Source: a virus (lineage: Duplodnaviria; Heunggongvirae; Uroviricota; Caudoviricetes). Taken from it: a DNA stretch of 40,480 bases. Of the stretch, positions 31,052-32,971 are shown in pieces. The notes below the pieces were generated by a model. The model worked only from the letters and a program-made list of their open reading frames with translations, did not search any database and had not been told where the DNA came from. How positions within the stretch are numbered: position 1 is the first letter of the stretch; each line of letters begins with the position of its first letter. Position numbers and translations under genes: made by a program. Location: positions 1 to 40,480 of the IMG/VR virus record IMGVR_UViG_2718218098_000005. The stretch is one strand, 5' to 3'.

Positions 31052-31480
31052 TCACAGCATCACCTCCTGAAAACTCCCCTGATAAAACGCCAGCACGCGC
31101 TGCATAACTTCGCTCTTCCGGCACTCGCTACAGATTATGTTCTGACGCCTGTCGTAGCGGCGTATCTCTCCGTCTGGTAACTTTCGAATCAGCGTCTGGT
31201 CAGTTGTTTTCTCCGGTGTCTTACGCCATTCGCGATACGTCTGCTCTGACGCAAAAACACCGTATTTACCGGACATGTATAAATCGCCACAAGCCAGCAC
31301 ATCCACAAGGCAGCGTCGGACCGAATGCCAGCCAGCCCCAGTCGCTCTCTCCAGCTGCGACATCGTCATGCGTTCATTTTTGCGCACCAGAACGATGATT
31401 CGAGTCTTCAGCTCCTCCCGTTGTTCGGGTGTGTATACTTTTGCCACAAGCCCTCCTGAAAAATCACCTTCACAATTCAT
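31052..31480 (-). CDS. Hypothetical protein (142 aa), possible winged-helix regulator
   Basis: ATGA overlap with P-like gene stop; internal HTH-like segment MSQLERATGAGWHSVRRCLVDV. Confidence 0.55.
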   Translation of the reverse strand: MNCEGDFSGGLVAKVYTPEQREELKTRIIVLVRKNERMTMSQLERATGAGWHSVRRCLVDVLACGDLYMSGKYGVFASEQTYREWRKTPEKTTDQTLIRKLPDGEIRRYDRRQNIICSECRKSEVMQRVLAFYQGSFQEVML

Positions 31481-32142
31481 ACAAAACCAGCCGCTTTCCG
31501 GCGTTCATACTCCTGTTTCAGCAACTCAATTGGTGTTGGCCCCGACGGGCGTTTTGGTGCTGCCAGTTGCCGCCGTACGGGCGGAACGCTGAGGCCGTTA
31601 CCAACATGCTTTGCCCATTTTGTAAGCTGCCGTTCCGCAAGTCGTTTTAACTCCCCCTCGGTCATCTGGCGCTCAATCCCCTTTGAACGCATCTCGAGGC
31701 AAATGTGATACAGCACAGGCTGAGACCACGGGTACTTATCACTTCCGTCATATCGCCAGGACTCATTGCGCCAGCGGCGGTACTCCTCCATCACAGCATC
31801 CACCGTCAGACCGAATGGATTGGCTCCGCTTTCCGAAATCAGTGCCACAAACTCAGCCAGGTCCGGAGGCCATGTTTCACCCGCCCGGCAGCGGTCCATG
31901 CACTGGCGGCAGACCTGTCGGATTTGCTGCTCAGTCATCGCGCCAATCTGTGCAATCCAGAGCTTCGAAGGTGCGGCCCCGTTCTTCTGGGTCCAGCGGT
32001 TCGAATAAACCTCCCCCATGAGTTCCCACAGCTTCCAGACCGTTTCCGTCGCTGATAAATCCGTTTTCACGTTCCCACTGCTCACGTGCTGCCCGAATTT
32101 CCTGAACTGCCCGTGATGCGGTGCCACCTGGTGCTGCTGCAT
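31477..32142 (-). CDS. Replication protein P-like (helicase loader)
   Basis: Central/C-terminal similarity to lambda P by recollection (..TEQQIRQ.., ..YPW..); ATG 32142 with AGGGGGT 5 nt upstream. Confidence 0.65.
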   Translation of the reverse strand: MQQHQVAPHHGQFRKFGQHVSSGNVKTDLSATETVWKLWELMGEVYSNRWTQKNGAAPSKLWIAQIGAMTEQQIRQVCRQCMDRCRAGETWPPDLAEFVALISESGANPFGLTVDAVMEEYRRWRNESWRYDGSDKYPWSQPVLYHICLEMRSKGIERQMTEGELKRLAERQLTKWAKHVGNGLSVPPVRRQLAAPKRPSGPTPIELLKQEYERRKAAGFV

Positions 32143-32971
32143 GGTTTACCCCCTTGCTGACTGGTTTAACCTGCGCCCTGACGTGATTTACGTGACGGGC
32201 GAATTTCTGCTCCCACTGAATCTGCGTAAACACTTTCCCCTCCGCTGCCCAGTAGTCCCGGAAGGCGGCAAGTTCAGCAGGTGTAAATTCTGTCTCCGGC
32301 AAAGCCATCCCCCACAACGCAGCCCGTCGTCGAAAATCCCGTGACGGATACCAGCTATCGGTCATCGGAAATTTTCCGATGGGTTCGCTCAGGCCATCCA
32401 GGAATACAAGGGGTGCTGCCTGTAACGATAAAACTTCCTGCTCACTGGTCGGAGCACTCTCGCGTGCGTTATGTGTGGGGTTTAGATCTTTGGGTTCCTT
32501 TGGGTTCCGTGATCCGTTTTTGGGTGTCTTTGATGGAAAATTTGGGTGTCTTTGGTTATTTTCCATGCAGCTAAGAGTTCCGTTTTTGGGTCTGTTTTTT
32601 GCTGAAACATAACCATTTTCGGTACTGTTTTTATTAACAGCACCAATTTTACCCACCTTTAAAGACTCCCGTTTTTGGGTGTATTCAGGCTCGGCAACAC
32701 TTTCTTCTACACCGATAAGTCGGTACACCACAATTTGCTTTGTTCTGCCTTTTCTCTCACCGGTATCAACAATTAACCCAATCTCCATCAGGTGTCGTAA
32801 GCTGTCCTGCACAGTCTTTTTGTTCAGTTCCGTTACTTCTGCCAGTGCAGATACAGACGGGTATGCACACAAATCGGCACCGCACATATCAGCAAGCCAG
32901 GTCAATACAGACTTACTGGATGAACTGCCGGTTTTCACCTTTTTAGCCCATCGTAGTGCATCGATACTCAT
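31931..32971 (-). CDS. Replication initiation protein (O-like, N-terminal HTH)
   Basis: Start ATG 32971 (MSIDALRWAKKV); N-terminal winged-helix region; 3' 211 nt overlap P-like gene out of frame. Confidence 0.6.
   Translation of the reverse strand: MSIDALRWAKKVKTGSSSSKSVLTWLADMCGADLCAYPSVSALAEVTELNKKTVQDSLRHLMEIGLIVDTGERKGRTKQIVVYRLIGVEESVAEPEYTQKRESLKVGKIGAVNKNSTENGYVSAKNRPKNGTLSCMENNQRHPNFPSKTPKNGSRNPKEPKDLNPTHNARESAPTSEQEVLSLQAAPLVFLDGLSEPIGKFPMTDSWYPSRDFRRRAALWGMALPETEFTPAELAAFRDYWAAEGKVFTQIQWEQKFARHVNHVRAQVKPVSKGVNHAAAPGGTASRAVQEIRAAREQWERENGFISDGNGLEAVGTHGGGLFEPLDPEERGRTFEALDCTDWRDD

Follow-up and report, generated by a model that had tools for sequence, protein, structure and literature searches.

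Do 212 nucleotides of a prophage replication operon serve both as the end of an initiator-like gene and, in another frame, as the beginning of a helicase-loader gene, or does one of the two genes carry a wrongly placed terminus? The question arose in a window of 40,480 nucleotides (the whole stretch of DNA that was analysed), which was 100% identical to the chromosome of E. coli strain M19 over the tested kilobase, and whose segment was present in 1,256 of 5,426 complete E. coli genomes. The locus is the early-right operon of a Rac-type prophage (PPompW / Rac-SA53 type), in which the minus-strand order is a cro/YdaS-like gene, ydaT (33494-32943), the initiator-like gene (32971-31931, referred to below as O), the P-family ORF (32142-31477, referred to below as P) and DUF977. 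The O-like ORF has a probable ATG at 32971 and a TGA at 31933-31931, and the P-like ORF opens at ATG 32142-32140 and closes at TGA 31479-31477. Codon position 1 of P coincides with codon position 2 of O, P being in the +1 frame relative to O, and the shared stretch counts 209 nt when the O stop codon is left aside. An earlier note on this DNA had placed the overlap rightly at 31931-32142 and had given its length as 211 nt, which is corrected here to 212 nt; its remaining coordinates (both overlap ends, ATG 32142 and ATG 32019) were all accurate, and so was its description of a strong Shine-Dalgarno sequence at ATG 32142 (AAGGGGG at 32155-32149, six bases upstream), a motif that lies within the disordered linker of O (O residues 270-285). 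A third in-frame P ATG, at 31938 (codon 69), had been missed.

Taken alone, this sequence does not lift the overlap above what chance allows: when the codons were randomised under a fixed O protein, 35% of trials left the P frame open over its full 70 codons in the overlap, and only comparison with relatives can therefore show whether the overlap is real. That comparison backed the first of the three readings offered by the earlier note, a genuine O/P overlap. We conclude, with a probability of about 0.8 and on the evidence of sequence comparison, that this is a genuine, anciently conserved out-of-frame dual-coding overlap in which P is probably initiated independently at ATG 32142. The features on which the argument draws are listed in Table 1.

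Table 1. Positions of the overlapping genes, the candidate start signals and the elements discussed in the text
Feature	Position in window	Strand	Details
O-like (YdaU-type) initiator/replisome-organiser gene	31931..32971	-	346 aa; ORF; PGAP gives the same coordinates
P-like helicase-loader gene, lambda P family	31477..32142	-	Proposed full length 221 aa from ATG 32142
Dual-coding overlap, 212 nt	31931..32142	-	O residues 277-346 plus stop; P residues 1-70
Shine-Dalgarno AAGGGGG for P	32149..32155	-	Six bases before ATG 32142
Conserved O-tail helix, O residues 287-302, ASRAVQEIRAAREQWE	32066..32113	-	O-phase substitutions; AF2 prediction
P residues 26-67, three helices of lambda-P-like domain II	31942..32067	-	P-phase substitutions; AF2 prediction
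Internal ATG, P codon 42, in the middle of helix 26-46	32017..32019	-	PGAP start in other genera (180-181 aa)
ATGACTGA, P codon 69 interlocked with the O stop	31931..31938	-	RefSeq start of the 153-aa form
Iteron-like direct repeats inside the O-like gene	32489..32688		ACCCAAAAACGG, four copies, and the 14-mer TTTGGGTGTCTTTG, three copies

Two further gene junctions in the same operon were also noted. At the upstream side, ydaT (33494-32943) shares 29 nt with the start of the O-like gene (32971), in agreement with PGAP. At the downstream side, the longest ORF of DUF977 begins at ATG 31480 and forms an ATGA overlap with the P stop (window 31447-31480), and a GTG at 31447, preceded by AGGAGGG, is the start favoured by PGAP and by Pfam coverage (from residue 13).

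The two proteins and the O tail

The downstream protein was assigned by profile and by fold. A Pfam scan matched it to PF06992 over residues 55-188 (61.1 bits, cut-off 26), with seven of its relatives scoring 36-57 bits against the same family, and Foldseek aligned its AF2 model with lambda P in the cryo-EM structure of the DnaB complex (9oa1 chain Z; E = 1e-5, 203-219 columns, TM 0.45) at 16-18% identity in the structural alignment; both results bear out the label 'P-like', which had first been given from the letters alone. The AF2 model of the 221-aa protein had a mean pLDDT of 79, with residues 1-27 predicted to be disordered (pLDDT below 50) and confident helices at 26-46, 48-54 and 60-67 (pLDDT 88-91). 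Lambda P has a disordered domain I at residues 1-29 (the 'N-terminal lasso') and a domain II from about residue 30 (PMC12661323). Since both proteins have a disordered N-terminus and then domain II from about residue 30, the predicted domain architecture of P matches that of lambda P end to end. By profile, modelled fold and domain order, P belongs to the helicase-loader family that includes lambda P, and DnaB loading is its predicted function. Sequence matches to lambda P in Pfam and in the PDB stop short of the N-terminal 55-70 residues of P, so that sequence homology to lambda P cannot place the P start and fold comparison was needed. In an alignment of 59 family proteins, residues W50, K53, N54, G55, P58 and W62 were invariant, and W39 was present in all 41 sequences long enough to include it; these six residues and W39 all lie upstream of M69.

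A lone P-family gene encoding 189 aa was found in locus L105 (2501-3070), where it has no initiator upstream and lies at the end of a contig beside PTS and molybdopterin-enzyme genes. The lone protein begins just 8 residues ahead of the conserved core, from which it follows that the P family does not depend on a long N-terminal leader. It also retains the VWQLWDTM motif in a place where no overlapping gene lies upstream, and the conservation of this motif is therefore not a by-product of O.

The upstream protein is laid out as an N-terminal winged helix-turn-helix, a disordered linker, a DnaT domain and a 79-aa C-terminal tail. Its DnaT domain (PF17948, residues 201-267) scored 61.5 bits in Pfam against a cut-off of 25, and a partial match of 94 bits to the NCBIfam DnaT equivalog fell under the 201-bit cut-off of that model, which makes O a domain relative and not DnaT itself. 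HTH_36, RP-C and HVO_A0114 were matched below the Pfam cut-offs, and Phage_rep_O, the N-terminal DNA-binding domain of lambda O, was absent from O in the Pfam scan. Judged by its domain content, O is not a homologue of lambda O. The earlier label 'O-like' accordingly holds for its position and presumed role only, and the protein carries a winged helix-turn-helix and a DnaT domain in place of Phage_rep_O. The AF2 model of O was poor overall (mean pLDDT 53); it predicted the winged helix, a long linker at 91-194 that is disordered, and the DnaT domain (pLDDT about 85), then disorder at 270-285, where the ribosome-binding site and ATG of P lie, a helix over 287-302 and renewed disorder from 306 to the end at 346 (pLDDT below 50). 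Nearly invariant residues of the tail are A285, R287, A288, V289, Q290, I292 and A295.

The tail was found behind HTH_36, DUF1376 and T5orf172/DUF1376 bodies. In L102 (Salmonella salamae) it stands behind an unrelated 300-aa N-terminal body and in L005 behind a DUF1376 body, with P downstream in both, and P lay downstream of the O tail wherever the neighbourhood was read. As these neighbourhoods indicate, the O tail is loader-specific and always accompanies P. A 90-aa query consisting of the O tail alone matched only E. coli fragments, a result that is uninformative on the distribution of the tail. In a wider view of the initiator's modularity (O tail 31931-32203; loci L005, L102 and L106), the half of O made up of the DnaT domain and the tail stands behind at least three different N-terminal bodies, and in L102 it is the tail alone that follows the unrelated body.

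Further upstream within the O-like gene, at 32489-32688, four copies of a 12-20-nt repeat and three copies of a 14-mer were found on the gene strand. These iteron-like repeats encode the PKNG-rich linker of O, which is disordered in the AF2 model, and by analogy with ori-lambda, which lies inside the O gene, they probably constitute the replication origin.

Conservation of both frames and the start of P

Ten loci were compared (from Escherichia albertii, Salmonella, Citrobacter, Enterobacter, Scandinavium, Pluralibacter and an Enterobacteriaceae), and five more distant loci were added (Klebsiella, Pantoea, Raoultella and two from Salmonella). Across 13 lineages, which represent about nine genera, both frames were open and shared 212-239 nt. 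In 11 loci (Escherichia, Salmonella, Citrobacter, Enterobacter, Scandinavium and Pluralibacter) the O stop was fixed and both frames were open, and the overlaps in the distant Klebsiella, Pantoea, Raoultella and Salmonella loci measured 215-239 nt. Alignment to homologues, which the earlier note had named as the way to locate the conserved termini, revealed no O that ends upstream of 32142: in the compared loci the O frame either has its stop at the equivalent site or continues for 16-31 nt beyond it. The P frame was open for 58-81 codons upstream of the codon-69 position, and an ATG stood 26-36 codons ahead of the conserved P core, in every compared locus. This ATG was preceded at 7-10 nt by GGAGG, GAGGT or AGGAG in 13 of 13 lineages, where the joint chance of a ribosome-binding motif and an ATG, given the O protein, was 0.19-0.39 per lineage by recoding. 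Over the second part of the overlap, the O frame was open by chance, given the P protein, in 2.5-27% of synonymous recodings per lineage, and it was observed open in 13 of 13; the lineages are partly non-independent, so that multiplied probabilities overstate the significance. Openness of the P frame over the first part is expected in about 70% of recodings and is weak, uninformative evidence.

The pattern of substitutions was then considered as the mean pairwise differences at each codon position among eight lineages. In the O-only DNA upstream, differences concentrated at O position 3 (0.51, compared with 0.26-0.27 at the other positions), which is the O phase. This phase continued into the overlap: over P codons 7-24 the values at P positions 1, 2 and 3 were 0.155, 0.417 and 0.208 (O phase, p = 0.011). 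By P codons 29-41, all of which lie upstream of M42, they were 0.245, 0.159 and 0.382 (P phase, p = 0.021), and over P codons 31-68 they were 0.129, 0.086 and 0.382 (P phase, p = 1e-5), the P-only DNA giving 0.118, 0.068 and 0.498 (P phase). The phase thus runs with O over codons 5-24 and switches from O to P at about P codons 25-29. Divergence at the third positions of both genes was lower inside the overlap than outside it, for P (0.38 vs 0.50, p = 0.005) as for O (0.42 vs 0.51, p = 0.02).

Among 62 E. coli haplotypes, nucleotide diversity was 0.0195 in the overlap, 0.0695 in the O-only DNA and 0.045 in the P-only DNA; the most variable codon position reached 0.03-0.04 in the overlap vs 0.11-0.12 in the flanks, and silent-site diversity was about three times lower in the overlap than in either flank. 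E. coli changes that fall in the first part of the overlap leave the O protein as it is and alter P radically; in the second part the roles are reversed, with silent changes in P and radical ones in O. Both frames were intact in all 48 haplotypes of the same length as the window. The other 14 of the 62 differ in length by one base; in the two that were read the extra base fell outside the overlap, where homology begins on the upstream side, and on these two alignments the length differences were rejected as frameshifts of the shared region. P residues 1-27 showed no amino-acid-level constraint of their own, with Q3P, G11E and F13S occurring within E. coli, and for this reason the case for their translation rests on the conservation of the start signals and the lack of an alternative start.

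Annotation pipelines disagree on the P start. PGAP places it at 31938 in four of four E. coli RefSeq loci examined (L003-L006; 153 aa, 8-nt overlap), and the Rac-SA53 record has the same start. DFAST gives a P of 140 aa. In Klebsiella, Citrobacter and other genera (L103 among their loci), PGAP gives 180-181 aa from codon 42 (89-nt overlap), and other pipelines give 221-223 aa, forms of which are present in the databases. Between them, the 153-aa and 180-181-aa models lack 41-68 N-terminal residues, including six invariant ones; as the family alignment indicates, the 153-aa model is truncated and the 180-aa model cuts into conserved sequence.

A start at ATG 32019 (codon 42) would leave an overlap of only 89 nt and make the open frame upstream of it incidental. 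This mis-set start had been the second reading of the earlier note, and we regard it as very unlikely. M42 is nearly invariant (58/59), 18 of the 59 database P entries begin there, and the openness of the P frame upstream is not improbable by chance, but P-frame conservation, P-phase substitution and the modelled helix all begin upstream of it. The P-phase substitutions are present already in codons 29-41, and W39 is accompanied there by W36 (35/41), A35 (33/41) and L or F at position 38 (40/41); M42 itself lies in the middle of the confident AF2 helix 26-46, and the lone P of L105 keeps VWQLWDT before M42. A further alternative is a start at codon 69, in which P would be a 153-aa protein arising from ATG 31938 by termination-reinitiation at ATGACTGA, either as the sole product or, in a variant, as a short form additional to the long one. 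That start is the one chosen by PGAP and the Rac-SA53 record, the sequence ATGA[C/G]TGA is kept in 11 loci, all from the group of E. coli, Salmonella, Citrobacter and Enterobacter (the family at large does not share it), and the Pfam lambda-P model covers mainly the residues after about 55-90. However, a sole 153-aa product would be without the six invariant residues and the three confident domain II helices, residue 69 is Leu in 32 of the 59 family members, distant O stops lie 16-31 nt downstream, L100 has no ATG at that position, and the P-phase pattern reaches 40 codons further upstream, all of which makes this start highly improbable. A minor restart at ATGACTGA giving a short P is possible and is not needed to account for the data.

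We consider it very unlikely that P starts at a non-conserved GTG (codon 20 or 25), which would give 197-202 aa and an overlap of about 140-155 nt. GTG does occur in the window, at P codons 6, 20 and 25, the folded part of P begins at about residue 26, and residues 1-27 showed no constraint of their own at the protein level; these GTG codons are, however, missing in other lineages, neither the one at codon 20 nor that at codon 25 has a well-spaced ribosome-binding motif, and a Salmonella locus (L016) contains no ATG, GTG or TTG between the P ATG and codon 42, whereas no start other than the ATG with its GGAGG-type motif is shared by all 13 lineages. That the overlap is an artefact, produced by a frameshift mutation or a sequencing error that extended O or fused the ORFs, or that it reflects a programmed O-P frameshift, has a next to negligible probability. 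The unusual length of the overlap is the one point in its favour, together with the fact that a +1 shift would yield an O-P fusion. Against it stand the 100% identity to E. coli M19, the occurrence of the arrangement in the 1,256 E. coli genomes, the 48 equal-length haplotypes with both frames intact, and an O tail and stop position that are kept across genera from E. coli to Pantoea and Raoultella; a frameshift-extended O, the last of the three earlier readings, was abandoned on the same grounds. Neither frame contains an in-phase slippery heptamer (X XXY YYZ), and the programmed frameshift was ruled out for want of such a site.

Order over disorder and comparison with known systems

In the AF2 models, the two parts of the overlap carry structure in alternate frames. 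O helix 287-302 overlies the predicted disordered N-terminus of P (about P residues 10-26), and P residues 26-67, with W39, W50, K53, N54, G55, P58 and W62, overlie the disordered O end (306-346). The predicted pattern is that of an ordered segment in each frame over a disordered segment of the other protein, a pairing that fits both the phase switch and the polymorphism pattern. Order-over-disorder pairing has been described for viral overlapping genes, and the modelled overlap is a clear natural case in which each protein has its ordered part over a disordered part of the other.

Long out-of-frame overlaps are known from phages, among them phiX174 A/B/K and D/E and lambda Rz/Rz1. The present case resembles such phage and virus overlaps in that the same bases are used in different frames and silent-site variation is reduced; it differs from them in being terminal (the tail of one gene and the head of the next) and not nested, and in lying between proteins that are presumed to bind each other, in the replication module of a temperate phage. 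A search of the literature on ydaU/ydaV and P/DnaT prophage replication found no description of the overlap. We regard it as a new case of a phenomenon known in phages, well supported and set in a replication module that is widespread among prophages.

A close parallel is the O-P pair of lambda, in which, as here, an initiator is followed by a helicase loader downstream of a cro-like gene. The P proteins are of the same family by Pfam and fold, sharing the disordered N-terminus, the two helical domains and the C-terminal helix; repeats lie inside the initiator gene here as ori-lambda does in O, and in both the initiator is presumed to bring in P through its C-terminal part. Lambda O and P share only the 4-nt ATGA, a short junction in contrast to the 212 nt out of frame found here, and the initiator here is a winged-helix and DnaT-domain protein with an added tail in place of a Phage_rep_O protein. 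The ydaU-ydaV pair of the K-12 Rac prophage has a shared setting, with a racR/dicA-like repressor, a ydaS/cro-like gene and ydaT, then an initiator and a loader, and a modular initiator body is common to the present locus, K-12 ydaU-ydaV and the cellular dnaT-dnaC. The difference lies in the loader and the junction: YdaV is a DnaC-type ATPase and not P, and YdaU, next to this loader, has a DnaT-like end (...PDSAIPPGFRG), is without the 79-aa tail and ends 6 nt from ydaV with no overlap.

A model for the shared end and its meaning

Under the preferred reading, a genuine overlap with an independent P start, the initiator-like gene would be read through to TGA 31931, and ribosomes would start P at ATG 32142 from its own ribosome-binding site, 212 nt before the end of O. 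The first part of the overlap would encode the conserved helix of O and, in the other frame, the disordered N-terminus of P of about 27 residues, the putative counterpart of the flexible domain I of lambda P; the second part would encode the first three domain II helices of P and the disordered acidic end of O. From the modularity of the tail, we infer that it may act as a loader-specific adaptor. Genetic work on O and P in lambda points to the C-terminal part of O as the part that engages P. By analogy with lambda O, whose C-terminal domain is the part that is combined with the P-DnaB complex (PMC12661323), the O tail would recruit P-DnaB; the proposed interaction between the O tail and P is drawn from this analogy only.

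The same bases encode the tail of O and the N-terminus of P, and the two are therefore inseparable when prophage modules recombine. We tentatively suggest, as a possibility that is rather doubtful at present, that the overlap is an evolved linkage device, in which the C-terminal adaptor of O and the N-terminal region of P would be mutually recognising surfaces that are co-inherited, with the initiator body and the origin freely swapped among prophages; as a secondary element of the same suggestion, ribosomes reading O over the P start, together with a restart at ATGACTGA, might set the O:P ratio or yield a short regulatory P. When bacterial genomes are annotated, a long out-of-frame overlap is usually put down to a wrongly set start; the present one withstood each of the comparative tests applied, and here the error runs the opposite way. 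The linkage proposal would account, in a form open to testing, for how an initiator and its matching loader remain together in mosaic lambdoid prophages.
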